Positions 3 through 63,038 of a stretch of DNA of 64,000 bases are shown here, piece by piece. The notes below the pieces were generated by a model, which was not told where the DNA came from, did not search any database, and was given only the letters and a program-made list of their open reading frames with translations. The stretch covers positions 128,001 through 192,000 of the forward strand of contig JAIPGM010000001.1 of NCBI GenBank assembly GCA_021735655.1, in the 5' to 3' direction. The translations under genes were made by a program, and so were the position numbers. The DNA is from Candidatus Omnitrophota bacterium (lineage in GTDB: Bacteria; Omnitrophota; Gorgyraeia; Duberdicusellales; 4484-171). Each line of letters starts with the position of its first letter. Position 1 is the first letter of the stretch.

Positions 3-515
3 CTTGAGGTGGGAACCGGTTCAGGCTGGCAAACCGCCATATTAGCTACTTTAAGCTATGGCGGTAGTGTTTATTCAATCGAACAAGACCTCGAAGTAGC
101 TAGGGTTGCTCAAAGTAATATTTCGGCGGCGAGGATTAGCAATATTTTCCTTATTCAAGCTGATGCAATGCAACCAATAGATGTATTAGCCGGTAAAAAA
201 TTTGAACGAATCATTGTTTCCGGGGCATTACCACAAGGAATACCGGTCATATTGTTAGATTATCTCGACTTGTCAGGAATAATGATTGCTCCGATAAATC
301 ACGGTAACTCTAGTGATAGTTTATGGAGGATTACCAAGGGGTATGACGGAACCATGGCTGCATCTAGAGTAGATAAAAATATGAGATTCCAGCGGATCAA
401 TGTTGCAAGTAGTACCTCAGTAATTCCAGTTAATCAGGCTAAGAAATTACAAGATTTATCTATTGAGCAAGCTACAGAGCTTGGTGTTCTGTTGGCTGAT
501 AGGAAAGCTCGAGCT
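3..515 (+). CDS. pcm: Module 0 (5' truncated): C-terminal part of protein-L-isoaspartate O-methyltransferase.
   Basis: LEVGTGSGWQTAILA is a SAM-binding motif I identical in style to the PCMT VLEIGTGSGYQAA. The spacing of the downstream motifs fits the PCMT fold. Confidence 0.55.
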
Positions 516-3500
516 CCGCTTGATAATGGAAAATCTTTATCGAGACGTAGCTTTGGTTTTATGGTGACCGCTTTGGGAGTGGGGTCATTTTTGACTGTTT
601 GTTCTAAGTCCTCTGATTTGAAACCGGAAGGCAATCTCATTGGGACTGGACTCACAGTAGGATTAACTTTCGCTCCTGGATTAGGAAGAAATATTGGGGC
701 ATATGAGGAGACAGTATGGACTGATCAGGATGTTGAATTTTTATGCCAAGAAGCGAAATTGATCAGAAAATTATGGAATGTTCCTTTTGTTTTATTCTCT
801 GTTTATACTCCTCCGATTGCCGGTAGCAATTACGCTCAAAGTTATCGATGGATTAAGCAGATGCATGAAGCTGGAGTTCGTCTTTTGCCACATATCTCAA
901 ACTATGATGGTCGCTATCTTCCTTCACCAATCGATATTAATGCTTGGGGTATTTCTGGTAGGGAAAAGAACCTATACAAAGATTTTATTAGGGGTTTGTA
1001 TCATGAGTTTAGCTTACGCAATGAAGAGGGTATTTTTTCTGAAACTATTGTTGGTTGGAATGTTTTTAACGAATATGATTATTTAGCTGTAAATAATCCT
1101 AAATGGTTTGCCAGAACGGGCGAGATTGAGGGATTATTGCAGGGTCTGGATGAAGCTGGGATAGTTGATAATCAAGAAAGAACAAGGGTAATACACGGGC
1201 ATGTTATCGATAATATCCTTTTAGCTACAGAGGAAACAACTCGAGGCATTATTGGAGTCTATCAAGACCTAGGTCTTGATCCTAAGCCGATATATACAGT
1301 TTGGGCTGGATTGCCGACAACTGAACAGGTTGCTAAAGTTCCTTCTTTGACTGGTTGGTCATTTAATCGTTATGATAAACCAGGCCTGTTAGAATCTTTA
1401 GAAAATGCTGCTCAGATAGTTGGTGGTAAAGAAATAAATATCCATGAGATCGGGGAGAGTTCTCATGATGGAGAGGATGTTCAAGCGATAGAGCTGGCTA
1501 GAACATTAAATGAGATAGTTGGGGCAAGAGCAAAATTTCCGAATTTGCGTCACTTTATGTTTATGAGCGCTAACGATAATCACTGGAAACCGGAGCTAGA
1601 AAGCACAACAGCAGGATACCGAAGATTTGATAGACAAGGAACTCCTTTCTATGGTCAACATTGGGGATTGTTTGCGACAATATTTGATGATGATGGCAAT
1701 GCCATAGCAGTTAGGCCGAAGAAAGCTGTCGGTGCTTTAAGTGTAGAAATTAGTAAGCTGGCTAATGCAAATAAAGCTGGTCAGCCACTTGATAATGGCC
1801 GGGATAGCTCAGCATTAGGCTCAATTACTACTCGGATTAATGTTTCAGCCAATAACCATTCAGTACAATTACAGGGACATCAACATTTAGTGGTCATTGC
1901 TCCTTTCGAAGATTTAAATCAACAGGACAGAGCTACTTTAGATGAACTTCTTGAAACCAAACTACCAATTGGTGACTATGTATTTATCGGCGAAGGAACT
2001 TTTGGTCTGTTAATGGTTGCTAAGATGGCCCTGTTAAAAAATAGCGATATCCGCGATAGTCAGCTAGCCGAACATTTAGGAAATGTCATTGAACTGGCTA
2101 GCTTGATGAATCAAGGGCTTAGCTCAACCGGCTTAAACTTAGGTGAGCCTATAGCCGAGCATCTTAATCGAGTGGTTGAATATTTTCCTTTAACTAATAA
2201 TCAGCGGCTAATAGCCCTTATTCGTAATTTAGTGATAATGCATTATGGGGAACCAGTAATGTTTTTTACTCAGTTTGCTCAAGATCCCGGTCGCTTCCGA
2301 GGAGTTTATCTATCAACCCTTGCAACCAGTCCGGAGATCATCAACCAGATGGAAATACAATATCAGAGGCAAGTACCGCTTAATAACGGAAAAGATACCG
2401 CAAAATATGTTTCAACTAAAGCAGTAATCGTACTTGGTGTATCTGGTTCAGGAAAAACTACCTTTATTGATAATTTGCTTGATGATCGGCACGACCGTTT
2501 TATTTTCCCGCGACTTACTACTACCCGAAAACCACGCAGTGGAGAAACTGCTGATCGTTATCGAGTTTTTGTTAGCCAAGAATTATTTGATTCAAAAGAT
2601 CGGGCCGATCAAATGTTAATGGTAAGAAGGGGCCGTCATGGCGGCTATGCTTATGGGTTAGATAGAGGTAATTTGGATAGGTGCTGCGCCACCGGTAAAG
2701 CATTACTTTTTGATACAACTTCAATCGCTGGGGTAGAGCGAATAAGAGAAATTTTTCCTCAGGCTGAGGTAATCACGGTTATACCTAAATCATTCGATAG
2801 GCTCAAAATTTTAAGCGATGAGCAAATTAAACGTATTCTTGAGTCGCGAATGAAGACAAGACGCATGAGTAGGGTTGATACTGAAAAACGCCTTCAGGAG
2901 GCTGTAAATGAGCTTAAAAGATTTCCTGAGCTTAAACCAGAAGTGGTTGTTGTGAATGATTCAATTGATGACTTAGATGAAAATATGACTAGATTTAATC
3001 AGGCAGCCGTGGAGTTAGTTTCTAAAAATCAGCCGTTAGATAACGGAGTCGATGAAGCGCATTGGCGACACAATCTTGACTTAAAAGGTTTTACTGAATT
3101 TTCTGATGAATATATTGATTTTCTTAAGAGAGTTGATGATCGAGAGGCTAATGATGCCTTTTGGCAACCGATCGAAAGATTTAATCAAAGATTAAAAAGC
3201 AATAAAGCTTTAGCTAGAAAACTTTTAGATTTATCGCAGATAATGCTTGATCAGGAAGTTTCAGCTGCTGAGGCTTTAATTGAGGCCTTAGCGCAAGTTG
3301 ATAATCGTAATGATTCAGAAGTTGCCTTTGAACAGGTAATTGAACTAGCGGCAGTTTTCTTAAGAAGAAATTTTGACCCGAGGGCTTCGCTCATGCATGG
3401 AGTAGTGGCTATAGCCAGTGCGGCTAAATCAGCAACTGATTTAGAAAGTTGTTTGGCTCTTGCCTTGAACATAGCCGAAGATGCTTCTTGGGATTATCCA

Positions 3501-6500
3501 CAAATAAATTTTGCAATCCAGTTTGATATTCCTTTGATTGCTTTAGAAACTAATGATCCAGAGGTTTTAGCTACTCAGTTAGAGTTTTTAGTCAGCCGTC
3601 AAGGATATTCGCAAGCTCGAGCTTATGCCCGGACCCATTGGATGTATAATTTTAGAAGAAAAAATAGTTTTCGCACTACTGATTGTTACGAAGTTGGCCC
3701 AGATGGTCCAAATTGGAAAAAAGGTTATGTTCGCAGAGGATTAGTAGAATTAATTGCTTATAAAAGATTTATTAAAGCTATAGCTAGAGCACAAGAACAA
3801 GGATTAGGCATTGAATCTCGTATAGCTACTAAAGAAAAACAAGTTTATCGTGGTCTGGTTAGGGCTGAAACTCACAGTGATTCAGGCACCTATTATACTT
3901 GGGAGCAAGATTTAATAGTAGCCGTTTGCCCAGTATTTTTAAAAGAGACAGTAGTTTCTAAAACTGATCTGACCGGTCAATTTTTCCCCGGCTTATTAAG
4001 AGTCGAAAATGATCAAGATATTAGCTTATTAGATTGGCATGTTCAGCGTGTTGTTGGTCAATTCCAAAGTTGGGTTACACATAGGCATAGAAATTTTGAT
4101 CAATGGCCACGTTGTCGACGCGATAATTTATTGCTTGAAGCTTACTTACAGCACCAGATTTATGATACCTATAAAAAATTTGCCAGTATTTGGGCTCGGG
4201 CTTATCAAGAAGCATTCATTCCGCAAAAATATCCTAAGGGGAGTCAAAATGATAATCCAGTATATTTAGCTGCAGTTGAAGCAATTGCTTGGTTAGATCA
4301 GGTTGGTGGAGTTGCCAACGAGCAACGTTTGGCCAAGCTGGATGAGCTAGACGATAAACATCAATTAGGGAGATATCGAATATTACTCCAGAAAGCTTTG
4401 CTTGAACCTCAGACTACAGGAGTCTCGCAAGTAACTCAAAAAGTTATCGGAGAGGAAGGTATTTCTGGCAAACCTTTAGATAACGGGAGAGTAAATAAAG
4501 AAGAATTAGCGGTTACAGCAGTTAAAAGAGGGAACACCTCACCGTGGCTGGCGGGTCCCCTCTCTGCTGTAGCCCCTATATATATAGGTAAACAATCGCT
4601 ACCTTTGGATAATGGTAAGTCAATTCAAGAACAATTCATTGAAGATGTAATTGTTTTTTGGAAAGTTTGGGATAAACAATATCCTAGAGATATTGAATCT
4701 AGCATTTGCGTACTCGAAGGCGTAAAAGCTTTGAAAGCCAAAGGTTATATAGTCTATTCTGGCTCAGAGCATCAATTGAATATGGCAATTGCTGGTTTAT
4801 GGAGAAATGTTTCTGAAGATGATAAGTTTGCAATAAAAGAAGCTGTACGTTTATTGGCTGAAAATGTTAGACAACATGCTGACGATAGCGGAAGATTGAT
4901 AGCCTTTTTTGATCGTGAAGATGATGTGCTTTATTTAGCTATGGTTGATGTTGGTCCGGGATTTTTCCGTGATGATGAAGGAAGACCGGTTATTCGGAGA
5001 AAAGATGATCGGTTTGAACAACGTCCGGATTCTACCGGCAGAGGGGTTGGTTTAAAGTGGGTTTCAGATCAGGTAGATGATTTACAAATCCATACGGGTG
5101 GGCATGTTAGCCGACAGCCTAAACCAACAATTGAGTCCGATTCAAGGATAGAAGATCTTAAAGGAACTTTTGTTTTTACGAAAATAAATTTAGCCAGTCA
5201 AGCCAGGGAGCCTTTAGATAATGGTTATGGAGTTTATCAAGGCAGGAGACTATATCTAGCTGCTGATCCGGTTCTAAGTGGAGTTAAAAGTATTCGGCGC
5301 GTGAATTTATCAGGTCTAACCACCAAGAGACAAAAACACACTTTATTCACTAGACGAAAAATTCTCGATTTAGTGAGTGTCCATGCTTTAGCGGCGGCCC
5401 ATGGTTATTCTTGGTTAAATGATATAAATAATAGTTATGCTAAAAACCAAGCTGATGGTGAGGTTACTTATTGGTTTGAGGTTTATTATGCTATGCTTTC
5501 CTGGTTAAAGGGAGAAATTTATAATGCTGAAGGAACTCGCGATGAGGCACCTAGTCTTTATGTCGGCCAACACGTTGGGGCTGGATTTCAAAGTGATTTT
5601 CCAGAAAGAGAAGAAGCGAATGTAGCTATCGGAATTGATCCTTTAGAGGTAACTAACGGAGTAGTTTCAGCAAAATTTCTTGGTAGTACTGCTCCGGCAG
5701 TATACGCACCACGTGGTGGGATTATGAAAATAACCGATTTAGCTTATCTTTGGGCTTTATCGGTTGGTCCGGCCGCCGGAAATTGCGATTTAAATTTAAA
5801 CTACAGCGTTAGAAAAAATATGACTAATCTAGCAGCTAGTTTAGGTAAGAAAACAAGTCAGCTCAGAGGGGTAATGTTATTCAGAGAAAGGCATTCACGG
5901 GTTCCTTTGTTGCAATTGGTTGAAAGCGGAATGCAGATAGATGAAGGTGATTCAGAACTTAGAGAATTCTTAAATGAGGCCAAACGAATCGAGGATAAAG
6001 AAAAACAATGTCAGAAGCCAAGCCTGCAAGATTTTGATAGTTTGAAGCAGACTTACAAAGCTTTTGATAGCAAGGTTAAGGCAACTGGGGTTTATCAAAG
6101 CGGGAACCTTACCTTTATTGCTGACGGGAACCTTATGCCAGCTTTAGTGGCTTTAAAGAGAGGCTCGGCAGATTTTATTTTTGACTCAGGGGGAACTTCC
6201 GAAGGAATTATGGCTGCGGCTAATGTAAGGGCAATTGGTGGAAAAATGAGCGCCCGGATTGTGCCTTATCAGGCAATGGCTGAAGGAAAGCTTCAGGCAA
6301 ACTTAGTTAAAGATAAAGATAAATTTTTAGAAAATGAACTAGCTGAGCTAGCGAGATATGGTTTTTATCCTAAAACTTCAAGAAGAAAATTGCAGCGAGG
6401 GCAATATCGTCTTAATCATGTTTTTGATGCTACAGATTTAGTCAGTGCTGAAGAAGCAGTTTTCTTGGCAGCTCACATTAAAGATAGTCCTTGGGACAGC

Positions 6501-9500
6501 AGATTGAAGGGAGTAAGATTCGACCGTTCGAGTGGTTATTTAGTCGTTGATGTTGTGGTTAGTACGACTGCGGGTGAAGTTTCAGTTTATCGGGTAACTA
6601 TGAATACAAAAGTTTCAGACGTAGAATCAAAATACGATGCGTTATATAAAGTGCGAGGATTGTCATTTAGTAGAATTTTAGACATATTTGATGGTCGTAG
6701 TCAAGCTCAGCAATTAGCTACTGATTACTATGATTTAGCTAAGGCTCTTGGAATGTTGGGTTTGTTTGAAGATGCTATTGATACATTTAGGTTTTCCGAA
6801 AATTTAAGAAGCAGTACTTATTCTTTTAGATGTCGCGCTGCTCAATCTCATTTCTTGGGGATGAAAATGATTCTAGAAGGTCAAGCAGGCCAAAACGCTA
6901 ACGAAATTGCTGCTAAACATTTTGAAGATTCCTTAGAGAGGAGTCGAAAGAGCCGAGACCCACAGCTAAGAACTAGAGAAAGGCTTATTGACCTTTATAA
7001 ATTTCTTGGTGAAACTGCAGTGAAGAAGGATGAACATCAGGATGCTGAACGTTGGTTTACTTTAGCTTTAAGAAGAGACCCAACCAACAAAGAATTGCTA
7101 GATAAGCTTAATCAAATACAAGTTTTAACTAACCAGCCGCTTGATAACGGCAAAGCCTCCCTAGAAGACCAAGCAGCTAGACAGCCTCTTGATAATGGCA
7201 AGCCTACGATTTTTTCAATTTCACCACAACTTCAGGGCACTCCTTTAGGTGAACGGTTGACGCAGCTTAATACTCTTTATCAGGAAAAAGGTACTAACGA
7301 ACAAGGCGCTAGGGCTGTAGTTGAGGCAGTTTTAGTTGAGCCGGAAATAAAACTTGAAGTCTCCCAAAGAATAAGACAGGCTGATCGCTTGGAAGAGACT
7401 CAAGGTTTTTCAGTATCAAAAACTTGGGCTGATCGTCTAAAGGATGAAGTTTTGAGCCGTTCAGTTGAAAAGTTAGTTGACCGGGAGATTTTCATATTTC
7501 AGATGGAGTATGAGTTGTCGGTGGGATTCTTGCAGGCTTTTTATGATTATCAGATTAGTTTAATGCGACAATATCGTAAGGCTGAGCTTGAAGCTGCTGA
7601 TAGCTTGGATCAGCAAACCGCTCTCGAAGCTGAAATAAGAAGAGATGCTACTCACAATACTTCCCAATTTGCTAAATTGCTTATGGCTGGTGGACTAGGA
7701 AGCTTTAAGCCGGATTTAGTCCGCGGCTGGTATCGAATTATTAAAGAATACCGTAGTTTAGCGGCTGCCCGAAATCAAATTCATGTTATGGGCATATTGT
7801 ACTCAAGTGCAATCAAGGGACAGCAGGAAAATCGAGGCTTGATGCAACTTAAGGGTCCAGCTCAGATAGCTGATAGTGATATTATCGAAACAGTTATCAT
7901 CAATCGAGCCAACCCTCAAAATGGTATGCTTGAATTAGTCGATACTTTTGAAGGGCCTGTTCCTGAATTTGGTATTGGTCAGTTAACCATTGAGTTATAT
8001 CGTAACCCACATTCTGAATTACAGGAATATTGGCTATATTGTCCGTCTCAGGTGGTTCAGGATAAATACGACGGGACTAGTGAAGTTGTTGAATGGTTGG
8101 AAAACGGAAGAGTCGTAGTTAGGCAAGCTCAAGTTTTCAATGAAGCTTATCCGGGAGAAACCTCTGATTATTGGCGGGCAGTTCAATCTTTAGTTTATCG
8201 CCGAGTTTGTTTAGAATTCATTCGTCGCGGTCAAGAGAATCGAAGGAATCATGAAAAGAAGCGAAAACCGCGCTGGGGAACTTATTTTGTCGGTAAAAAA
8301 TTACTTTTTTCAACTAGCGAAGTTAACACTACTTTAGTCATTCCTCAAGTTATCGAAGCTCAATACGGCCAGGTAGAAGATAGTCGGGGAAAGAGGGCAA
8401 AAAGAGTTATTCGCGGTGATAATTTTGCCAGATATTCTGGTTTTCGCGACGTAGTGGTTCATCATTATAACCATACGATTGTTCCAGCCGGCATGCCTTA
8501 CTATCCGCAGGATGCTGAAAATGACTTTTTTACTGAATTAAGCATTGCTGAACGATTCCGTCCGGCTATCCATGACGGAAAAATTGATTTAGTAAAAATA
8601 ACTGGTCAGGTCAGCGATGTTATCACTGGCTGCTCAACCATGCATACCCGGATTTTACGTGAGGAAATATTTGCTGAGTTTGCCGAAAAGGTAGTTGAGG
8701 ATCCTTTATTTGGTAATAGTGAAGGTTCAGATCTTGAGCGTTGGCAGGGAAGAAGAATCCAGACCACGGTTGCCCATTATCGAGATCAATTAGGGGTAAC
8801 CGGAAGCCATCAAGAGTTTTTCGCGGCTTTAGGCAAAGTTTCCGACGGACAACCAAGGGTCAAGCGAGACTTCATTGCAAGTATTTTACGTGCTAAACAT
8901 AAACAAAAAGAATTATTTGTCCGAAAGCTATTTGATGGTACTTTTGGCGATCTGGGAGTAACGGAAGCGGAGTTTAAAGCTGCCGGAAAATCTATCTTAG
9001 ATATGCCATTTTTTACTTTTGTCCGCCGTTTTGTTGATTATAAATGCCCCAATCTTATCATTGATATGCTGTTTAATAAAGAATATCGCGATAGAATTGT
9101 TGCCGCTAACGCCGTAATTTTAATCGGTGGTCGCCGCTTTAGTTGGTTTTTTGAAAAACAGCGTGAACGGTTACGTCAATTAATAAGACAGGATCCGAGA
9201 ATGAGATTTCATGTTTTATTTATTGAGGAACATAATATACATACCTCTCCGATAATGCAGCAGGGCACTGATTTTGGCGGAATGCTTTCCTGGGAAGGAA
9301 AAGAAGCCGGCCCAACTAGTTTTGGTAATGCTCAACAAAATGCTTCGCCGACTATTGGAACCTTAGATGGGGTTATCCCAGAACGTTTGAGGCCGATTGT
9401 GCGTGGCCAACAGGGAGAAATCATTAGTGGAACCGGATATGTTGTTGAATACTCACAGGAGCGTAAAGGTGGAGTAAGAATTCCGGATATTAATTCGTTA

Positions 9501-12500
9501 GTGCTTCAAATTGAACAAGCCAGCAGAGACTACGCCGATAAATTAGTTTATGGTCAAATTGCCGTAAATGCTTTAGCTATGGGCATGACCCAAGGCGATA
9601 TTGACAATCAGGCCAAGGGCTTAATTGCAGTTTGGGGGAACTTATTAGAGCAAGCAAGGCCAGCGGCTGTACCTTTAGATAATGGAAAAGTATCTAAGGC
9701 ATCCATAGGTAATAGAAATTTTGGCCAAAAATTATTTAATTTTTTAAAATGGTTTATTGCTCCAAAAAGTCCTAAAATGCTTCAGTTTCTTACTGAGGCA
9801 ATTGTAAATACTACTGGTTTGTCAGCCGATATTACTCAAAAGTTAGAAGAAATAAGAAGGCAGATCGAACAAGCTGAAGATAAGAAAGAGCCTTTAGACA
9901 ATGGTCGGGATAAATTAAGCCCTAGAATATCAAAATTGCTTGCACAAGGAACTGAAGATCCTCAAGTGCAATATCAATTACTAGAGATTATTCGCGCCCA
10001 ACAGCAACCAGTAGTCGGGATGATGGATAATTACCATTTAAATGGTCAAAGGGTTCGCTTTGCGCCTGAGGAAAGTTTAGCTGTAGTCGCAGAATTTGAT
10101 CGTGGTAGTTTTAGAAGAGCATTCAGTCCAAAATTAAGGACGATGATTATTGAAACTCATCCCGATGATTTAATCATTCATGCCGGTGCTACGGCAAATA
10201 TGTTTGTTAGTGAAACTAGGGGAATGATAACTGAGCTTATTCCGCAATATCCGGGATACCGCAATAATATGCCAATTTTTGTTACAGCAGTTCCTGATCC
10301 AGCCGGAGTAACTGATAATTTTGCTTTTAATTTTTTCCAAGGCAAATTAACTTCTTTGGAGGCGGCAAAAAGAGAAGTCCGGGCCCAGGAAGCGATCTTA
10401 AATGCTGGTTTTATTGGTTGGAATCAGACTGGCAATGCCAGTGAAAGGCACATTAATCTTGATTTAAGATTAAGCTTGATTAAAGCAGTCAGAAGGCCGG
10501 ATGGAAGCCTTGATTCTTATCGTAGTGTTTTTCAGAGATTAACTAAAAGTGAACTTGAAAAAATTGACGCTGTTGTAAGGGAGAATGCGGCTGATCAATA
10601 TTTTATGGTCCATCCGTTTAGCAATCATCCACACCATCGGGTTGTAACTCATGCCTTTTTAGAAGCGATTTACACTCACAATCCGCAAGCAACTATATAT
10701 TTTTGGGCTAATCAAGAAGAACACCAACAGTTAATGACCCAGGCTAATGTATTTTTTGTTTTTAGTGAGGGCATGGAGAATTGGAAAGGGTTAATTATTT
10801 TTAACGGAAACCATTCGCAAAATGAACGCCGAGGCGGAAATGGTGAATATTATTGTGATGCTGCTCGGAGTATGGATTTAGCTACCTGGGAAAATTTACA
10901 AGAAAGACTTGCTCGAGAGGAAACTAGTTCGGTAAATTTAAATAGTTTACCGCTTTGGCGACCGCATGCAGAAAGATTTGTAAAGGTAAGGATTGAGCCA
11001 GTCGGTCAAGATGTCCTGAGCACTCCTTTGGATAATGGGAAATCAACTAAGCAGCCAGAGAAAGAGGTAGTTTCTGATTCCCAAAACGATTTTTCTTTAG
11101 AGCAACTGAAAGCGCTTACGGTTGGTAGCCCTAATCTTTCTTTCGGGGTAGGTATTTTAGCTCGTCATCAAGAGGTGGATTTAATTATTCAGGCTTTTGG
11201 TAAGAGAATAATCAAGCGCGGTGCTTTTTACCAGACAAGACCTTGGGAGGAAACCTTAAAAACCGATTTAGCTTCACCTAACGCAGCTAAAGTAGATTTA
11301 GCCATTAAAACATTAGCCAGTTTAGGCGGAGATTACGCGGCCAGAGCTAGGCGCTTTGAACAAGATATAACCGTAATTGAAGTCGACCTGCCAACCCATT
11401 TTCTTTTATACGGCCAGGATTTAACCGGCGAGATTTATTATCAGCTTACTCATATTGGTCTTGAGCGAAGAATAATTTATCTTCCAAGTAAATATCTAGA
11501 GGATGCAAGTGGACCAGAGTTTGTAGCTACTATTTTTAACCACGATCAAAGCGAGCTTGAGGAGTTCATTCCTTTTTTATTAAGTGGCCGAAATATCACC
11601 GATCAAATGGTTGAGCAGGCTCATCAACGGGCCATGCAAGACGATCCTTTTGGTGTTTACCCCCAGGTCGATGACTTGCTTTCTGATATGCAGGCTTATG
11701 ATGATATGTTTACCCAATCGATGGTTGTAGCTCAAATTGCTGCCGTAGATTCAGCTGTTACTACAAAGAATCGTCAGCTATTAGATGCTTTAGCCTCCCG
11801 CACGCCAAGTGGGCCAGAAGCCTTAAAGGCTAAAGGCCTTTTATTTGAACTAGCCAACCTTGAAACTAAAATTGGTTGTTTGTATGAGGCATTAGGCCAA
11901 AGAAAAAGTGCAATCAGTCATTATCGTAGCGGCGTAGCCGCATTGTCCAGAGTCTCAAAAACAACTATAATTGATACTGGTTTGTTGCCGCTTCAATTAC
12001 AGGTAAGAATGCTTTACCTCTATGCTCGCGAAGGCATGTTTGGCCGTCTTCGAAGTGGTTTTCGTAAATTTTCCCAAGTTAAAATTGGTCGCCAAGCTGA
12101 GGCTTCTGAGGTTGAGCTTTTTGAATGGTATATGGATAGCAATTTTGTGCCGGTAAGAAGAGCTGTGGTTGGAATCCTGCGGCATCACATTACTTGTGGG
12201 CATAACAACTACCCTAAAGATCAGGTAATGACTACTGTTAGATATATTGAACAGTGTCAATATATTCCTTCGGATATAACCCCACGTCTTAAACCAGCTT
12301 ATCTTCAAATTAGAAACACTCCAAGCTTAGCTAATGTTTTTTCAGCCGCCGAATATTTTAGGAGACATAAAGTTCCCGGCTGGGATAAGGTTTTAGCTAA
12401 AACCTTAGGCGGTAATGGCCAGATGGAGGAAGAATATTTGGGTGAATTTGTTGAAGCTAAAGCAGCTGAAGATCAAGTTTGTTATTCGCGGGTAATCGAG

Positions 12501-51500: not shown

Positions 51501-54500
51501 TTGGCTCTTCACCGAATGATTTCTTTCCTTGAGATTTGGGCTGAGTCAGCAGGAAATTTTTCTTTTGATTTAACCGTCCATGTAGAAAAAGTTGCCGGCC
51601 GGATTTTTGAAGCAGCTGATAATTTGGTAAGAACCAATAATACACGTTTGAGAAAATTTACCCAAATTGATCAAAAGAGAACCTTTGATCATCAAGCCGG
51701 CCGGCCGACTTTGCCTTGGCGTCATAGTCTTTATGAAATTGCCATTGAAATGGCACCAATGGGAATACTTTATCATTTGCGGGATGTCGGTAGACACTTA
51801 TCTTTACTTAATAGATTTAAGGTTGCAATAAAGGAAGATGGTCAGATAGATAATTATCATATATGTCGTCTGCGTTTTGCTTTATTTGAGTTGACCAAGC
51901 TAGGCTATTATTTAAAAAGTAACCAGCGCAGAAGGTTAATCGGCCTTCTTCCTGGAATAATTACCGATGAAAAGTGTGATGGCCTATTAAGGAAAGATGC
52001 CATGTTTTGTTTGGCAATGGCAATTAGGTGGCAGGAAGAAGAATCCTGTAAATCTGAGGTAGATCGGGCAAGAAAATTATATTTAGGCATATTACAAAAT
52101 CCCCTTGAAAGTGCTCAGCTGCATACCTGGGCTCAGCATTGTCTCTATAGGATTTTCGGAGAAAATTACTTCCGGCGGATAAGCGCTGATTTTGATCGCT
52201 TAAACGGAGTTAACTTACCCAAGCCGCTTGATAACGGTCGGGATAGTTCGGTCGGGATTACCTCAGAACCGTTAAGAATTTTAGCCGAGCTAATTTCGAA
52301 TAGTTATCGGACTAAGGCTTTAGTAGAATTTTTGCAGCCTTTCTTAGATTGTGAATCTGTTAATTATTTACAAGAAGAGATAGCAAAGCATTGCCAGCTA
52401 CCGGCCTGGGGTGTTGTTTCTTCTAGCCATTATCTTGATGAAGGGTATTTCTATTATGGTTTAAAATCCGGTATTGATCGCTGTCTCGAAAGAGGAGTTA
52501 TGGTTGAGAATGACGGTAACAGATTATACGTTACTAAAGATTCAGAGGATACCGTAAAATATAGCGGCCTTGACGAAACTCAAGAAAACCAGTGGGGAAT
52601 TTTTATTTTTCCAAGCGAGTATTTCAATCAGGCTATCAATTGCGGTTATGCCGAGGCCGGCTTAAGGCTTTCACATAACCGCTTAGGCATAACTACTTAT
52701 CCATACTTCAAAAGTTCTTTATCGCTTGCGCCGGCACGCTTTCTGATAATTGATAGATCTAAGGCAGATGAACATAGGCACCTGGAAGGCCAGCCGAAGC
52801 TAAAAGATAAACTTCAAGCCTTGACCGAAGCAGGATTGAAGGTTCTATGGTTGCCGGATTCTTCCGGCCCATTCTTTGACCCTGATTTCCAATATGCTTT
52901 CGGGGAGTTGTTGTTTAGTAATGATATTCCGGAAACCAATCGCTTTCTTTTTTATCCGTCCGCAGATACTCAAGATCTTACAAAAATCATCTGGTGGGTT
53001 TTACAGTCGTTAAGAATGAGTAGTATAAAAAATCGGCTATTACATAATATGGAGTTAGCTCGGCAATTTAAAAAAATCGGCCCCTTTGATAATGGGCGAG
53101 CTGATTTTACAACAGCAGACGAACAGATCGGTAATCTTTTTGCTGAGGCAGTTATTACAGGAGATAATGTTTTAATTGAGACTCATTGGGATGCTGTAGC
53201 GGCTAAGAGAGGCGGCAGTTTGAATATTTTAGAACATGCTGGCTTAAGGATTACAAGAAGTTTAGCTTTAGGAATTGTACCGCGGGCTGGTGAATGGCCG
53301 GATAGGGTTGAAACCGATCAAATCATTCTGAGTTCATCTCGCTATGGTTGGATCGATTCTGAAAGAGATATTGAGCATTTGTTAAGCGGCTTTGATCAAG
53401 CCAGATTGCTTAATTCGTTTAATCTTGGCCATTATTATCAGGGTTGTCACTATCGAAGTTTCCTAAGCTGGCTAGCGGTTTTAAAGAGTAGTCATTTCCC
53501 GGCAGTTATTTTTCATTTCATAGGTGAGCTAATTAATTCTTGGGGTATTAAGCCAGCTGCTAAGAGTGATTTTCCAGTTTTGGCCAGTCGAAGGGATATC
53601 TTTTCTTTCGTTAGCGTGCCTTATGTTTCAGATATAGAAAAATTAGATTTGCCAGTTGCAGTGTTTTTTGATGGTAAGCTTAGTTCGCTTAGGCGTGGCG
53701 ATAGCCGGAAACAGCCAACTTTAATATTAGCTTATTGGCAAGCTTTGAATGGTTTTATTGGTTTTAAAGAACAGATAGCTAGGGAAACAGCAGAATTTCA
53801 GAATACCCCTTTAGATAATGGCCGCAAAGAGCATGACATCTCTGATAGTACGGTAATCCAATGGCCGCTTAATGTAATTGTTAAAGATATGCGCGGTTTA
53901 TCCAAAGGCGAGATATTAGCTGTTGTTAAAACCGGTAAAATATTTTGGGGAAGGGAAATAGTAGGAGCTATTTTTTCTGACCGCAATATTGTTTTTGGTA
54001 AAGTGGTCGATGATAAGTTTATAGTATTTGATGATTGGTTAATTGAAAGAATTCCTGGAGGATTGTTAGAGGGGTTGCGGAGAAGCATTTTATTTTTGCC
54101 TTATTTAGGAAGTATTTTAAGAAACAAGACATCGTCAATAAATAAACCCCTGGATAATGGCAAGAAATATAATTATCGGCAAGTCCTAGAGATGGTTGAC
54201 TGTTTTGATAGTGCAAGGTTAGAGGCTCACTTATTTAGAGCTCTTGGCAGAGTTGAGACTGAAGCCGTATCTATAGCTGGTGATATTATTAGGGCGGCTA
54301 GAAAATTTGAACGGATAACTAAAGCAGTAAAATCTCTTTATAGGAAAACTTACGGCAAGCTACCTAATTTTACTCTTGCTTTCGATCCTTCCGGTCAAGG
54401 TATGTATGGGGCGTATCAGGAGGATGATACAGCCGGATTTTTTGATCATATTGGCGTAGCTCCAGAAGATGTGCTGCTTGAGGTAGGCAGCGGCGATGGA

Positions 54501-57500
54501 AGCATTTCGGATTTCATGGCCCATATGTTTGGGATTAAGGCAACTGGGATTGAGGTTTGGGAGCCATATTATCATTACGCAGTTTTCTTAAGAGATGAAG
54601 CAGTAAGAAGAAGATTCATTCCAGAAGGTAAAGTAGATTTTTTAAATAATAATTTAGTAGATGTTGATTTTTCAAAGTATTCTTTAGTGTACTACGCTGC
54701 TCTTGGCACAAGAAGAAAAAGTGAGCTGGCTGCTAGATTGCTTGGGGTAAGAGAAAAATCCAGGATATTAATTCGGGGTTCACCTGATGAGTTAGTGGAA
54801 GGGATTATCGCATCACATCCTGATTTTAGCTTAAGGAAGCTTGAGATAGAAGTTAATGAAAACCTTACTGGAATTAAGGCAAGGGTTTATACTCGAGAGA
54901 CAATTACCAGTTACCAGCCGGTTCTCGACGTTCCTCTAGATAATGGCCGAAAAAATAACCCTCAGATGGTCAGAGCGCGCTTAGCCGCATTTGAAAAATC
55001 AATCGAGGGCATCGTGCCTAGGGCAGATCCGCTTTATGACCATTTAATTCGTTTTTATCAATATCCTTTGAATAATTTGGGTGAACCTGACGAAGAGACC
55101 TATGTAAGGAATAATACCAAGGAGCAGGAGCGGGAGCTTCTTAGATTCTGGGCCGGCCATTTCGGCCTTCCTAAAAATTACGGCGGTCATGTGACTATCG
55201 GAATCGGTCAGGCTGAATATTATGCCATGTACGTGGCTAGCAATCGATTTCCCAAGGCTATATTTTATATTTCTAATCAGGTCGATAGCCTTCTTTATGA
55301 TACTTTACAGGTGTTGGGCATTGATCAAGGAAGAATAAAGTTAATTAGGTCTTTAGAGAATGGCGAGATCGACTATGGTGATTTAAAGAGAAAGATTAGG
55401 GAGAATTCATCATGGCCGGCGGTGGTCTGCTTGACTGCTGGCAGATTCCTGGGGGCGGTTGATGATTTAGGAAAAGTGGAAGGAATTTTAGGGAGCCTGG
55501 GCCTAAAGCATAAACATATTCATTGCAGCATGTCACCGTTAAGTATAGGCCAGTCGTTTTTGGAAGATGCGGCAAAGATAGATTTTCAACATGGCTTAGA
55601 TAGCATGAGTCTACCGTTGTATCATTTTGTAAGGTGTCCGATGCCAGGAGTCATCGTTCTTACCAGAAGGAAATACCTTCAGAACATTGCTTGTAGTCAA
55701 AAAGCAGCTGAGTATGTTAACTCTAACGACACCACTAATTCTGGATCACGTAGTGGTCATGCTCCGCTTTATCTTTGGTTTGCTACAAAAGTTATTGGGA
55801 CTAAAGGATTTAAGGCTCAGGCTGAGCGGGCCAGGGAAGTTTGTGTTTCTATTAAAGCTCTATTTGACCGTTACGGTTATCCTTGCCGGTTCACCGCGCA
55901 AAAAAATACAATAATCTTTGAGCCACCATTTTATGAGTTGCGTCAAAAATGGGGCTTATTATCACACGGGCAATGGTCCTGTTTTGAGATTGTACCTTAT
56001 TTGACCCCGGTTGAGATAGCCGAATTTGTAAGTGATCTTTTAGGTGATCATTCTCAAGCGGTAGCCGCCCCGGTAGAAACCGTATTTCCGGAACGGATTG
56101 TCTATGAACCGTCTCCGGAAGTCTTAGATGTTTTGGATCAATTAGAAGCAAGGATCCAAATTTTGATGGAAAGATTTTTAGGATTTCCGGCAAATATCGC
56201 CGGCAATGAGACATCTTTTGCTGCCTTGAGCAGCTTGTTTAAATACACCTTGAGAAAAAAGGATGTGGAAGGTTTTCGACACGAAGCCTTGAAATTTTTT
56301 ACTGATCTTTACGGTTTAAGGTACGAAGATTTTTACTGCGGCATAACTGCTGGAGGAACCTGGGGAAATCGGGTTGGCCTATTAGTTGGCCGGGAAAATT
56401 TTCCCGGCGGGATACTTTATTACAGTCAGGATTCGCACTACTCGATTGATAAAGTGGCCAGGAGCCTTAACATGGAAGTAAGAAAGGTCGCCTCTTTGTC
56501 TAACGGCCAAATTGATTATGATGAATTAGCCGAAGCCATAGAGGAAAATCGTGGCCGCCCGGTAATTGTAAATCTTAACATCGGCACAACTATGAAAGGC
56601 GCTATCGATAATCCCCAAAGAGTTATTGAAATATTAAGAGAACAGGATGTTACTGATTACTATATCCATTGTGATGCCGCGCTTTTTGGTATGATTTTAC
56701 CGTTTCTCGAGGCTGCGCCAAAAATTGATCTGGCTAACGGCGTCCATAGTATTGCCATATCCGGACATAAATTTCTCGGCCTACCGATGCCTTCGGGCAT
56801 ATTCATGGTTCGGAAAAATTGTGCTAGGGATAGATTGATAACTATTTCGGATCGATTATTGACTGCCCAAACTGGCCATGTCATTTTGTATTTTTGGCAG
56901 GCTGTTGCTAGCCGAGGGTATGAGGGTTGCAGAGAAGAAGCTATGGCTTGTGTGGATAATGCCCAATATCTTTATTACAGATTACAGGAAAGGGGATTGC
57001 CTTCGGAGGTAAACCCTTTTTCCAATATAACAATGTTTTCCCGGCCATCGGGTAGCCTAATTGACACTTGGCAGTTAGCGCCTTGCGGGGACCGCGTCCA
57101 CGTAGTGGCCATGCAGCATGTTACCAGAGATAAGATTGATGCTTTTGTCCAAGAGTTAACTAGGGATATGCAGCAAGGGCAGATAGAACTAGCTAGTTCT
57201 ATGCAGCCTCTTGATAATGGTAGACGGCGCAAAGCATCGCTAGTGCCAGAGGTAGGCCTTGATGAATTAGTTGAAAAACATTTAGGAAACTTGAAGTTGA
57301 TATCTTCTGAGTATGGAAAAAGCGTAGGCATGTTATCTACTATTTTAAGACGACCAGACAATGAGAGCCTTCAACAAAGAGCAGAGGAGTTGAGGAAGAT
57401 TGGTCCTGGCCGTCTGGCCTTAGCAGCTGACTTAGGCGAATTCGGAGTAGATAGTTTGAAAATTGGTCAGAAGTATGGCGTTGGCCGAAGAACAGCGGCT

Positions 57501-60500
57501 AGTTGGCTTGTTAATAATGGATTTGGCGATAGGGTTAATAGCGCTAGATATAGTCGAAGTAGAACATTAAGACGTCAAAAAATAGCTCAGGAATATGAGC
57601 CGATTGCTCGCTTATTAGATGGTGAAGGCAATCTTTTACAGACATTTTATACCCATATTTCTTGGAAAGAGGTATCTGCTTATCCTTTCGCTGTTTTAGA
57701 TGAATTAGAAATCCAAGCTACCGAAGTTTTAAGTTATGGTGGTAAGCAATGGGGTCAGTTTAAGGGGCATGCTGGCCATAGAGCTCGGATAACATTGGAG
57801 TGGGGCTATCCAATAGAAGTTGCTATGTCTAGCAAAAGAGGAGTTGATCAAGGTAGCTATAGAGCCATGCAGCTTAGGACCTATCAGTCAACTCTTTTTG
57901 ATAGAGAGGGGGAACTCTTAGATACTGCTTTTTTCGTTTTTGGTTACGATGAAGATTTATGTCGGGGAACAACAAAAGTTGTTAACTATCAATTAACCAA
58001 GGCTGGAAGAATTAGTATTTTTGGTGATGAACAAATACAGCTAATAAAACATAAACAAGCCTGGGCTAATTTAGTTGCAGTGGATGGAAAGGTGGTCAGG
58101 GCTACCATTCTTGATAGAGAGGGCGGGAATGAGGTTATTACTTATAATTTTTCTCGAGTGTATGATGAAAACAACCGAGTAATTTACACTTTTACTGGAG
58201 GTTTAGAGTTTAAGCAAAGCAGTGTGCCGCCTGCGTTGTTGAAATCTTTAGCTAGAGGAAGAATTGAAGGTATTTACCTAAAAGGTGGTCGTGGCAACTT
58301 AACTATTGGCGGCAGAACTTGGGTTGTTTTAAGTGACTATAAAAATTATCCATGTAGGGCTTATATTGAAGAAGGGCTTGTGGTCAGAGTAGAGGTTTTA
58401 GGTGAAGAAGGAGAGGCTGTTTTTACCAAGCATTCTCACCGCCTTTATGATAGAGAAGATAACTTTGTCGAAGTATTTTATGATTCTATTTCACCAGAGC
58501 GACTTAACCAGGTTGGTTTGTGTCGTAGCAGTCCACTTATTGTGACTCCTTCAGGAGAGTTATGCTTATCTGGAAATCGTTATACTTTTGAAAATGAAGG
58601 CGGCTCTAAGGCTATTGTTTGGATTGAACCCGGAGTTAAGTTCACCAGAAATAGAAAGCCGGATGGTAAAGCAGTTAGAATTGATTTTTATGATCAATAT
58701 ATGCATTATAAGCATACCCGTTATGCAGTCAGAATCTATGAAGATGAAGGAGTTTTAATTGATACTTTTTTTGGTCCAGGATATGCTGAGAAGCTAAAGA
58801 TTTTTGGTGATGTAATTGGCTTTGCTCAACTCGATACGTTAGGTTCTCTTAATATTGGCTACACAACCCATACCTTTACTAAATATGGTGACCCTCGACA
58901 TTTTGTTAGATTTAGTCTACACCAGGCTCAAGTTCTGGATGTAGATGTTCTTGGCCATGACTATTGTCATATCGATAGAGTTGGCTTTGACGCTTGGCCT
59001 GATATGGCTATCGATCACTTTGAAATGGCCCGAATTGTTGATGAGCAGGATCAGCTATTACACACTTTTTGGTACGGTGTTTATTCAGAACGGATTCCCA
59101 ATAGAGGTAGAGCTAGAATTTTAGGGGCGACTTTTACTGCCGGAGGTCACCTGCGACTTGGTAACGAAGATGTTTATCATGATGCGAACTTTCCCGAAGC
59201 TAGAGTAAATGTTACTTATATTGACGGAGAAGTAAGTGAGATATTAATTTATCAGGATGCTCAAGGCAACTCAGTAAATTATCATTATACTAAAAAGCAG
59301 ATAGATAATTATAAGCGCAGAGTGCAATATTATAATCTGCGCGGTCATGTATTCGAGCATGCTTTAAGAGTTGCCTTACCTTTTTTAAGCGACTGCCCTT
59401 TTGATTATCAAAAGCGCATTGGTGGTGAAGTTGATGGGTGGGTTGATGGTGAAGCTGAACCAAAGCCAGCTGATTCCAGATCACTTAAACGTCCAGATTT
59501 TACTAGTCCTTTTAGCTGGGCAATGAGTGAAGGGGTATTGTGCTATATTGATGCTAAATTCAATCTTAGAATTAAGTTTTTAATAGAATATCTAGAGGCA
59601 ATTAAAGAGACTTTAAGAACTGATTATTTTACTGATTGTGATGCCCCAGTTGAAACACATTTTGTAGGAAGAGTTATATTTGAGATAGTTTATTTAGGCA
59701 GAGTAAGTGAAGCTAATGTAGAGGCAAAGTTAGCTGGTCATCAGAGAAATTTTTCAGCTACCAATTCTGAGATGCTCACCTTGAAACCAGTTAGCTTTCT
59801 TGATGAGTACGGAGATAGGCTTAAGACCGCTGGTCAGGATACTTTAGTAAGGTTTCTGAGACATCTGAGAGTTTTTCATTATAAGCCAGGTCGCAAGAAA
59901 GCCTTAGATAGCTATTTAGCCCAATTAGAACAGGATAAAATTCCCGAGATAGCCGATGAGCAGACTAATCTTTTTTCAAGGCCGCTGGATAATGGCCGAG
60001 AAAGATTATTGGTTAGTAGCGGTAATAGTCATTTAAAAAGTTTTCGTGAGGCGAAAGGTTTATTAGCAAAATTAAAATGTACAGACATTTTTGGGGTTGT
60101 CATGGGTTATCGCGCTGCCTTAGCTGATAGAGATAATTATCAGAGAGTATTTGCTCGTGATTCTGTTTGGATGGGGTTAGCCGAAATGCTTTCCGGCTGT
60201 AAAGGTAGTTTAGCTTTAACATTAAGCGTATTAAAACATCATCAATGTCGGTACGGACAGAGACGCGGGGCTATTCCGAGTAACATTTCAAGGTATCATC
60301 GGGTAAGTTATGGGACAACTAGCCCAAGAATTGATCCAACCCTTCTTTATATTGTTAGTTCTGGCCAATATTATCGGTCCAGACCAGCCTATTTTCAAAA
60401 ACAGTTTCTCGTTGAAAATTTATCGCCGCTACAAAAAGCTATAGCATATTTAGAAAGACAATGGGTTATGGATAACGGTTTATTGTTTATTCCGATTGCC

Positions 60501-63038: not shown

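Follow-up and report, generated by a model that had tools for sequence, protein, structure and literature searches.

How a bacterium makes use of a protein of more than 21,000 residues, and whether such a chain stays in one piece, is the question raised by a 64,000-nucleotide (nt) stretch of a Candidatus Omnitrophota bacterium (assembly GCA_021735655.1, contig JAIPGM010000001.1, positions 128,001 to 192,000 of the forward strand; the whole stretch is hereafter called the window), in which a single open reading frame (ORF) is punctuated 62 times by a hexapeptide of the form PLDNG-K/R. Omnitrophota commonly encode giant ORFs of 20-150 thousand codons, which have been described as 'Archaeovorin-type' (West-Roberts et al., 2023, bioRxiv 10.1101/2023.11.21.568195) and as a 'multi-enzyme metabolic cluster' class (bioRxiv 10.64898/2026.06.07.730766); in both papers proteolytic processing is suspected, with the cleavage points unknown, and no junction motif is described. 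The second of them counts 5,761 Omnitrophota proteins of at least 10 thousand amino acids. The window contains the last 63 kb, on the 3' side, of a giant multi-enzyme ORF of this type, and the hexapeptide that divides it is examined here as a candidate signal for its processing.

The hexapeptide and the selection that holds it

The ORF runs uninterrupted in frame +3 of the forward strand from nt 3 to a stop codon at 63036-63038 (21,011 codons), its 5' end lying beyond the window; the other five frames contain 1,143-2,528 stops each. All 62 positions given in the earlier note for P[LF][DN]NG were reproduced exactly, every one in frame +3, and the other five frames have none. The sites comprise 58 PLDNG, three PLNNG and one PFDNG, with 0.016 copies of PLDNG expected from amino-acid composition against the 58 observed. 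Asn-Gly is invariant (62/62), and the residue following Gly is R at 28 sites, K at 26 and H at three, with V, Y, Q, L and G occurring once each, in agreement with the earlier count of K or R at 54 of 62. There are no decayed copies: the only one-mismatch variants of PLDNG in the whole ORF are the four already included, and PLDN does not occur outside the motif. A search of the window ORF for a second recurrent peptide or punctuation motif found none, and the dipeptide NG is mildly depleted outside the motif (41 against ~62 expected). The sequence logo confines its information to P-L-D-N-G-[KR], the 15 residues on each side being unconserved except for a polar bias, and the junction flanks compared in pairs show background identity, two small duplicated cases excepted. 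With 58 of the 62 sites identical at five residues amid unrelated flanks, a flexible linker and nothing more, one of the options entertained in the earlier note, is untenable.

The same note held that the peptide and not the DNA is constrained, and the codons confirm it. Between the 58 exact copies codon identity amounts to 0.436, compared with 0.450 +/- 0.021 for random draws from gene-wide codon usage. Third codon positions contribute next to no information, and the first position of Leu, too, varies freely. The proportion of synonymous differences (pS) between copies is 0.81, against 0.73 for unrelated flanking codons, while the non-synonymous difference (pN) is at most ~0.05 and pN/pS at the motif at most 0.06. 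A preference for CCT-TTA and CCG-CTT is a codon-context habit of the whole gene, shared by the motif; the C-ending codons CTC, AAC and GGC are mildly over-used within it. Because the synonymous positions are randomised and no Rfam family was matched in the window, the sites are neither a DNA or RNA element nor recently homogenised, and nucleotide conservation does not exceed what the peptide imposes. Judged by these substitution patterns, the sites are held by strong purifying selection on their amino acids.

An origin of the motif through module duplication was also ruled out, the segments being unrelated apart from two small cases, as were internal translation starts. Met is not enriched after the sites, and Shine-Dalgarno-like sequences are depleted between -15 and +45 nt of them (3 against 10 +/- 2.7 expected), on which grounds the modules are not translated separately.

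Placement at the joints of protein-sized units

Searches against Pfam, NCBIfam and PDB sequences reveal an ORF tiled by divergent enzymes: a PCMT-like methyltransferase, a guanylate kinase, a class II (glpX) fructose-bisphosphatase, a glucan phosphorylase, PIG-L, two OxsB-like B12-radical-SAM modules and one further radical SAM, FkbO/RidA, PFK, TreT, GH77, GT2, a PglC-like phosphoglycosyl transferase, a GDH-like dehydrogenase, a serine/histidine decarboxylase-like module, GH100 and GT1. About 20 distinct Pfam families are represented, none dominant and with one paralogous module pair, and 14 strongly hydrophobic helices are scattered among them. All matches lie far under the family cut-offs of NCBIfam (e.g., 73 versus 160 bits for guanylate kinase and 108 versus 430 for PFK), and roughly half of the chain has no domain match at all. 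For the regions of the ORF that were searched, database relatives are exclusively multi-domain proteins, and four of the few that are named by source come from Candidatus Omnitrophica or Omnitrophota, one module reaching 38% identity with an Omnitrophota protein (E = 3e-69). The window thus resembles the known Omnitrophota giants in its uninterrupted ORF of well over 20 kb, in its many divergent enzyme domains (glycosyltransferases, methyltransferases, radical SAM, sugar metabolism), in its scattered transmembrane helices and in its nearest homologues, but differs from them in the strict hexapeptide that marks its joints.

None of the 62 sites lies inside a Pfam match, where 10.6 would be expected over the 3,577 covered residues (P ~1e-5). 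The guanylate kinase is bracketed on both sides, at 7 and 13 amino acids (aa), and residues 5-192 of the 198 of mouse GMK fill the segment. With stand-alone homologues as reference, the PFK, PglC and TreT modules start ~20-30 aa after a site, and 8-13 aa separate the ends of the decarboxylase, FkbO/RidA and GH100 modules from the site that follows. In Omnitrophota homologues the conserved FkbO/RidA domain has the same ...WLVEIEA end and is then followed by a linker of its own between domains. An AlphaFold2 (AF2) model of aa 6268-6830, made with eight homologues (predicted TM-score 0.72), gives a confident FkbO/RidA module whose last strand finishes 8 residues ahead of PLDNGK, and leaves all four sites of the modelled region without secondary structure at a predicted lDDT (pLDDT) <50.

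Mean length among the 63 segments between sites is 333 aa and median length 241 aa, as for free-standing proteins, and the segments are mutually unrelated except for a 43-aa mini-module that occurs twice and one OxsB-like pair. The earlier note had placed the motif exactly at fold boundaries. This holds wherever it can be examined, but not every domain boundary has the motif; since more than one domain is found in some segments, what the mark sets apart is protein-like units and not every fold. In five of the eight membrane-bearing segments the first hydrophobic helix comes no more than 50 aa after the site (P = 0.002), which is how the N-terminal anchors of separate proteins would look. On the evidence of module ends and of the AF2 model, the motif sits in predicted disordered linkers at the joints of protein-sized units.

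Short spacers of 7, 7, 7, 16, 17, 28, 29 and 33 aa also occur between sites. The three shortest belong to doubled junctions (14793-14831, 18807-18845 and 36261-36299) that read PLDNGR[V/A]PLDNG[K/Q]P; the first two have ~25 aa of extended similarity in common, and the junctions are not the product of recent slippage, because the codons of their two halves differ. The mini-module (…LAVTAVKR.(N/D)TSPWLAGPLSAVAPIYIGKQ…) is present at 4473-4619 and 36132-36278 in two copies of 81% identity with the motif on both sides, and a database search that included the motif found no homologue of it. By analogy, these mini-modules look like small released peptides.

From 5' to 3', and on the forward strand throughout, the series opens with PLDNGK at 516..533 (site 1, aa 172) and PLDNGR at 1785..1802 (site 2, aa 595). 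The guanylate kinase match starts 7 aa after PLNNGK at 2376..2393 (site 3, aa 792) and ends 13 aa before PLDNGV at 3033..3050 (site 4, aa 1011). The first mini-module is opened by PLDNGR at 4473..4490 (site 5, aa 1491) and closed by PLDNGK at 4602..4619 (site 6, aa 1534), after which come PLDNGY at 5211..5228 (site 7, aa 1737) and, with a 10-aa spacer between them, PLDNGK at 7137..7154 (site 8, aa 2379) and again at 7185..7202 (site 9, aa 2395). PLDNGK at 9672..9689 (site 10, aa 3224), PLDNGR at 9891..9908 (site 11, aa 3297), PLDNGK at 11025..11042 (site 12, aa 3675) and PLDNGR at 13185..13202 (site 13, aa 4395) lead to the first doubled junction, with PLDNGR at 14793..14810 (site 14, aa 4931) and PLDNGK at 14814..14831 (site 15, aa 4938) as its halves. 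Beyond PLDNGK at 17232..17249 (site 16, aa 5744) lies the second doubled junction, PLDNGR at 18807..18824 (site 17, aa 6269) and PLDNGK at 18828..18845 (site 18, aa 6276), both disordered in the AF2 model. The site 8 aa past the last FkbO/RidA strand is PLDNGK at 20244..20261 (site 19, aa 6748, pLDDT <50), and the next, PLDNGK at 20343..20360 (site 20, aa 6781), precedes the equivalent of residue 1 of stand-alone PFK by ~20 aa.

PLDNGK at 22539..22556 (site 21, aa 7513) and PLDNGR at 23175..23192 (site 22, aa 7725) are followed by a GHKL-like module common to the relatives P0009-P0022 introduced below, which PLDNGR at 23844..23861 opens (site 23, aa 7948) and PLDNGR at 24462..24479 closes (site 24, aa 8154). 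Next come PLDNGK at 24819..24836 (site 25, aa 8273) and 25584..25601 (site 26, aa 8528), PLDNGR at 27096..27113 (site 27, aa 9032) and 27783..27800 (site 28, aa 9261) and PLNNGK at 28872..28889 (site 29, aa 9624); a hydrophobic helix begins 2 aa after PLDNGK at 29541..29558 (site 30, aa 9847). PLDNGH at 30198..30215 (site 31, aa 10066) and PLDNGK at 33036..33053 (site 32, aa 11012) are succeeded by PLDNGK at 33087..33104 (site 33, aa 11029), ~23 aa ahead of the equivalent of TreT residue 1, and then by PLDNGK at 34968..34985 (site 34, aa 11656) and PLDNGR at 35679..35696 (site 35, aa 11893). The second mini-module is opened by PLDNGK at 36132..36149 (site 36, aa 12044) and closed by PLDNGR at 36261..36278 (site 37, aa 12087), which is at the same time the first half of the third doubled junction, PLDNGQ at 36282..36299 (site 38, aa 12094) being the second. 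Past PLDNGK at 37884..37901 (site 39, aa 12628) stands the weakest copy, PLNNGL at 39534..39551 (site 40, aa 13178).

The remainder begins with PLDNGK at 40065..40082 (site 41, aa 13355), PLDNGH at 41667..41684 (site 42, aa 13889) and 42168..42185 (site 43, aa 14056), PLDNGK at 42648..42665 (site 44, aa 14216) and PLDNGR at 43554..43571 (site 45, aa 14518) and 44145..44162 (site 46, aa 14715). The PglC-like module starts ~30 aa after PLDNGR at 46332..46349 (site 47, aa 15444). Upstream of a multi-pass membrane module lie a pair of sites, PLDNGR at 47643..47660 (site 48, aa 15881) and PLDNGG at 47727..47744 (site 49, aa 15909), the latter opening the module, which PLDNGR at 48450..48467 closes (site 50, aa 16150). 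There follow PLDNGR at 49344..49361 (site 51, aa 16448), 49869..49886 (site 52, aa 16623) and 52224..52241 (site 53, aa 17408), PFDNGR at 53082..53099 (site 54, aa 17694), PLDNGR at 53808..53825 (site 55, aa 17936), PLDNGK at 54147..54164 (site 56, aa 18049) and PLDNGR at 54933..54950 (site 57, aa 18311). PLDNGR at 57207..57224 (site 58, aa 19069) lies ~12 aa past the equivalent of the histidine/serine decarboxylase C-terminus; after PLDNGR at 59982..59999 (site 59, aa 19994), the GH100 match ends 13 aa before PLDNGR at 61263..61280 (site 60, aa 20421), and PLDNGR at 61350..61367 (site 61, aa 20450) and PLDNGK at 62805..62822 (site 62, aa 20935) complete the series, the stop codon following 71 aa later.

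Some features of the modules themselves deserve mention. The two OxsB-like B12-binding radical SAM modules (14832-17231 and 30216-33035; 26% identity) are the sole sizeable paralogous pair, and a PNP_UDP-like domain is joined to the second one without an intervening motif. The FkbO/RidA module carries a hydrophobic insertion of ~41 aa at aa ~6497-6555 (window ~19500-19670), which has low model confidence and is missing from all Omnitrophota homologues. On the 3' side of the stop codon, 63039-64000 contains no ORF >73 aa, no terminator-like hairpin and no match to an RNA family.

Relatives and their private junction peptides

Protein searches found neither the ORF itself nor a close relative, aa 6275-7518 retrieving only Omnitrophota FkbO/RidA proteins of 1-1.7 thousand aa that lack the motif. 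Searches of genome contigs and of plasmids gave no locus related to the window, and the DNA pattern of the doubled motif returned only low-complexity actinobacterial or chance matches (596 Gb of genomes, JGI metagenomes) and none in viral contigs. A full HMMER search, for which aa 7724-8923 served as query, returned homologues solely for the segment between sites 23 and 24, the GHKL/anti-sigma-kinase-like module, and all of them lie inside large multi-module proteins. Among the 21 proteins retrieved there is one clear second example of punctuation, the complete 5,506-aa protein P0022, of which P0016 is a fragment without relatives outside its own cluster. The P0022 gene lies at 10001-26521 of locus L005 (JGI Ga0118719_1000055, a 198.7-kb contig) in an ordinary Gram-negative neighbourhood, and the same gene, at 99.99% identity, is found in L004.

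P0022 has a dispersed exact peptide of its own, ETTEPSSIG[QSR], at 14 sites, which following a first segment of 2,016 aa are spaced 150-400 aa apart; its first site, at aa 68, comes directly after an N-terminal hydrophobic anchor. Two modules are common to P0022 and the window, and on either side of both P0022 carries ETTEPSSIG at precisely the positions that PLDNG occupies in the window. One is the multi-pass membrane module (P0022 aa 2107-2349; window 47745-48449, aa 15915-16149), with 47% identity over 247 aa (E = 2e-59), and the other the GHKL-like module, with 29% identity; their order is reversed between the two proteins. Both proteins have a doubled junction ahead of the membrane module, the aligner setting PLDNG on PSSIG, so that site 49 is aligned with PSSIGS, and P0022 has ETTEPSSIGS in the place of site 50. 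The membrane module has invariant stretches including SDIxGQYLNQGR and QGLATHILYN; no Pfam or PDB match was found for it, and its AF2 model is poor (pLDDT 46). The DNA of the P0022 junctions hardly varies (GARACCACCGAACCATCCAGYATAGG), with a codon identity of 0.74 against 0.32 +/- 0.03 expected, a pS of 0.33 and a pN/pS of ~0.05.

Weaker private junction peptides are seen in P0013 (L006 11-6190, running into the contig end), which has xRSSPx five times, in P0017, where [AE]AKP[PA]A occurs seven times and brackets the GHKL-like module, and in P0009, with LRP[LM]AAGE twice; the remaining proteins with the GHKL-like module have none. The neighbourhoods of P0012, P0013 and P0014 contain no adjacent giant gene and no protease. 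Periodicity of the motif in relatives, which the earlier note had made a touchstone for its proposal, thus takes a modified form: the exact motif is absent elsewhere, and punctuation of the same kind, with a different peptide, is present in P0022. From this comparison, the junction signal is most likely private to a lineage, a related giant using a different peptide at equivalent joints.

Processing signal or something else

What the data call for is a reader, specific for sequence, that recognises the exposed hexapeptide where protein-sized units meet. With a probability of about one half, in our estimate, this reader is a dedicated endopeptidase and PLDNG-K/R a junction signal specific to the lineage, i.e., the giant chain is a polyprotein that is processed. 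Exposed in its disordered linkers, the hexapeptide would be recognised at the peptide level by a sequence-specific partner, and we infer that recognition leads to cleavage; the likeliest partner would be an endopeptidase encoded in the 5' part of the ORF, beyond the window, or elsewhere in the genome, which would cleave at each mark, during or after synthesis of the chain, and set free ~60 ordinary-sized proteins together with a few short spacer peptides. Proteolytic processing is favoured because the linkers between fold and mark are very short and the units protein-sized; because membrane modules alternate with soluble enzymes of normally oligomeric kinds; because spacer peptides and doubled sites occur and the consensus is lineage-specific, as in viral polyproteins; and because a chain of >21,000 residues would be hard to complete and fold. 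As to the bond, Gly is the last residue of the conserved core in PLDNG and ETTEPSSIG alike, which hints at cleavage behind it, though the residue preceding the cut may instead be K/R or Asn. Protease-mediated processing, which the earlier note had put forward, survives as the best reading in its trans version, with a putative enzyme that the searches of the window did not find.

Several known systems offer a measure of how far such a reading departs from precedent. Viral polyproteins, such as those cut at the potyvirus NIa-Pro heptapeptide, at picornavirus 3C Q|G or at coronavirus Mpro LQ|S/A/G, likewise place many proteins in one ORF, with a short lineage-specific consensus in exposed linkers at the joints and with small spacers; the window differs in belonging to a cellular bacterium, in its >60 mostly metabolic units, in a far more uniform site and in that its processing is a candidate only. 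A cellular parallel is found in Euglena, where the RbcS/LHC polyproteins have their units separated by conserved decapeptide linkers that are excised by a dedicated peptidase (PMC4938576), but these are copies of one protein in a eukaryote, processed after plastid import, whereas the window encodes unrelated bacterial enzymes. The MARTX toxins are very large bacterial multi-module proteins that are cut by their own cysteine protease domain in unstructured linkers between modules, releasing effectors (PMC2900308); their site, however, is merely small-Leu-small, and neither the cysteine protease domain nor the RTX repeats that they carry is found in the window by Pfam. The giants of West-Roberts et al. 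have N-terminal C39/S8 peptidase and SecA-like domains, none of which occurs in the 21,011 residues of the window, the N-terminus of the ORF lying outside it. A C39 double-glycine site, which calls for Gly-Gly, Gly-Ala or Gly-Ser at -2 and -1 and for a leader conserved at hydrophobic positions -4, -7 and -12, does not fit either, as position -2 is Asn, only -4 (Leu) agrees and the upstream positions are unconserved.

A number of observations weigh against processing. No peptidase domain was found in the 21,011 window residues by Pfam, NCBIfam, PDB sequence search or catalytic-motif regular expressions, the single HExxH (aa 13112) being at about chance level, nor in the complete P0022. No orthologue of the ORF was found in the sequence collections searched. 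Cleavage sites in viral polyproteins usually show more degeneracy than a set in which 58 of 62 are identical, and a cut after Gly would leave an N-terminal Lys or Arg, which is secondary destabilising in the proteobacterial N-degron pathway. Finally, the conservation of junction DNA in P0022 points to an additional process at the DNA level.

Other explanations have to be weighed against the same facts. The chain might stay uncut, the hexapeptide being a short linear motif for a common partner (scaffold, chaperone, modifying enzyme or targeting factor) or an Asn-Gly turn that organises the modules. Strict peptide conservation in exposed linkers would suit any sequence-specific reader equally, a protease has not been found in the window, and Asn-Gly strongly favours type I' turns; we nevertheless regard this as unlikely, given that linkers of 7-13 aa between normally oligomeric enzymes and the mixture of membrane and soluble modules are awkward in a chain of >21,000 residues, that it is hard to see what doubled sites and spacers of 7-33 aa would do in docking, and that ribosome drop-off over >21,000 codons would make a full-length scaffold rare. 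A still more doubtful view takes the motif for an assembly joint: a scar or handle, now translated, of a process that builds and shuffles these genes at the DNA level (cassette capture, linker recombination or gene conversion), the peptide itself having little function. The near-invariant junction DNA of P0022 speaks for such a process, as do the two doubled junctions with extended similarity and the common modules, which are not collinear between P0022 and the window and so appear to move as mark-bounded units, but a neutral scar would decay in the protein too, and the sites of the window keep their amino acids even though their synonymous positions are fully randomised. Given P0022, DNA-level assembly is likely part of the origin of the motif; it gives no account of its maintenance in the window.

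The chemistry of Asn-Gly, to which the earlier note gave much emphasis, could in principle act spontaneously, through succinimide formation leading to a deamidation or isoaspartate timer or to backbone cleavage, perhaps coupled to PCMT, or could offer a legumain-type site. Asn followed by a small residue is what legumain (C13) cuts and is present at 62 of 62 sites, NG is mildly depleted elsewhere in the ORF, and the first module of the window (aa 1-123; window 3-371) is, as had been noticed, a partial match to the PCMT-like isoaspartyl repair methyltransferase. This match, at 72 bits versus 188, lies far under its family cut-off, and the proximity of the module to the first site is best regarded as coincidence; the module also has weak matches to peptide-maturation methyltransferases (ATP-grasp maturase, FxLD system), all far under their cut-offs. 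Chemistry would need N-G alone, yet P, L, D and K/R are equally fixed, ETTEPSSIG has no Asn, and deamidation dominates over chain cleavage at Asn-Gly. A six-residue motif without a conserved fold cannot form the active site of an asparagine lyase or intein, and indeed the flanks are uninformative, no Hint or intein match was found and the sites are disordered in the model; Pfam and NCBIfam found no C13 peptidase in the window. The precursors of multi-core ribosomally synthesised and post-translationally modified peptides (RiPPs) and of cyclotides, in which recognition sequences flank each core and an asparaginyl endopeptidase acts at Asn-Gly, are similar in repeating a recognition peptide on both sides of each unit, as around the 43-aa mini-modules, but their units are of 6-40 aa and are not enzymes, and no maturase was found in the window. 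All this makes autocatalysis, legumain and a link to PCMT very improbable. Co-translational separation, a bacterial analogue of 2A/StopGo skipping or programmed drop-off, would yield many proteins from one ORF with no need of the protease that was not found, and like 2A it would place a short peptide at the joint of two proteins; it is scarcely to be expected, since D(V/I)ExNPGP is missing, no upstream nascent-chain context is conserved, no known bacterial stalling motif is present and the second system has an unrelated peptide, while 2A/StopGo is known only from eukaryotic ribosomes and is not known to be active on bacterial ones. Hardly any weight, either, attaches to an artefact, be it an assembly chimera or an engineered or designed linker. 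Neither the ORF nor the motif is present in the public sequence collections searched, and codon choice at the sites resembles random draws from a usage table; yet the codon-pair context is the same in the motif and in the rest of the gene, the modules are true divergent homologues of Omnitrophota proteins, the natural metagenomic P0022 has a 47%-identical module with analogous punctuation, and copies of 15-18 nt that differ in sequence are unable to cause mis-assembly.

Processing by a dedicated endopeptidase can be joined with the signs of DNA-level assembly in a wider and more tentative view, to which we would not give much credence at present, namely that such giants are operons in one reading frame. 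Giant ORFs would be built of whole-protein cassettes, and the private peptide of each lineage would be both a processing code and, while young, a DNA-level joint for capturing cassettes and shuffling them between giant genes. PLDNG-K/R would then represent an old state, conserved only as a peptide, and ETTEPSSIG in P0022 a young one in which the DNA is still conserved; a co-evolving protease would read the code and free dozens of ordinary enzymes from one translation unit.

Giant Omnitrophota proteins are already known, but a strict private punctuation peptide at the joints of their modules is not described in the available literature, and our searches of it found no report of PLDNG as a motif or of junction motifs in these giants. 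PLDNG-K/R is thereby the first concrete candidate for a site of cutting or recognition in such proteins, and the open question of whether the giants act as one chain or are cut, and where, becomes directly testable. The junction peptide predicts the exact termini to be sought in metaproteomes, permits the informatic splitting of giants into units for structure prediction and offers, via co-occurrence, a route to the cognate protease. Should cleavage be confirmed, this would be a cellular bacterial polyprotein of unprecedented scale, comprising >60 different proteins, and a cleavage code that varies between lineages, together with cassette-like modules, would bear on how giant genes arise and are expressed.

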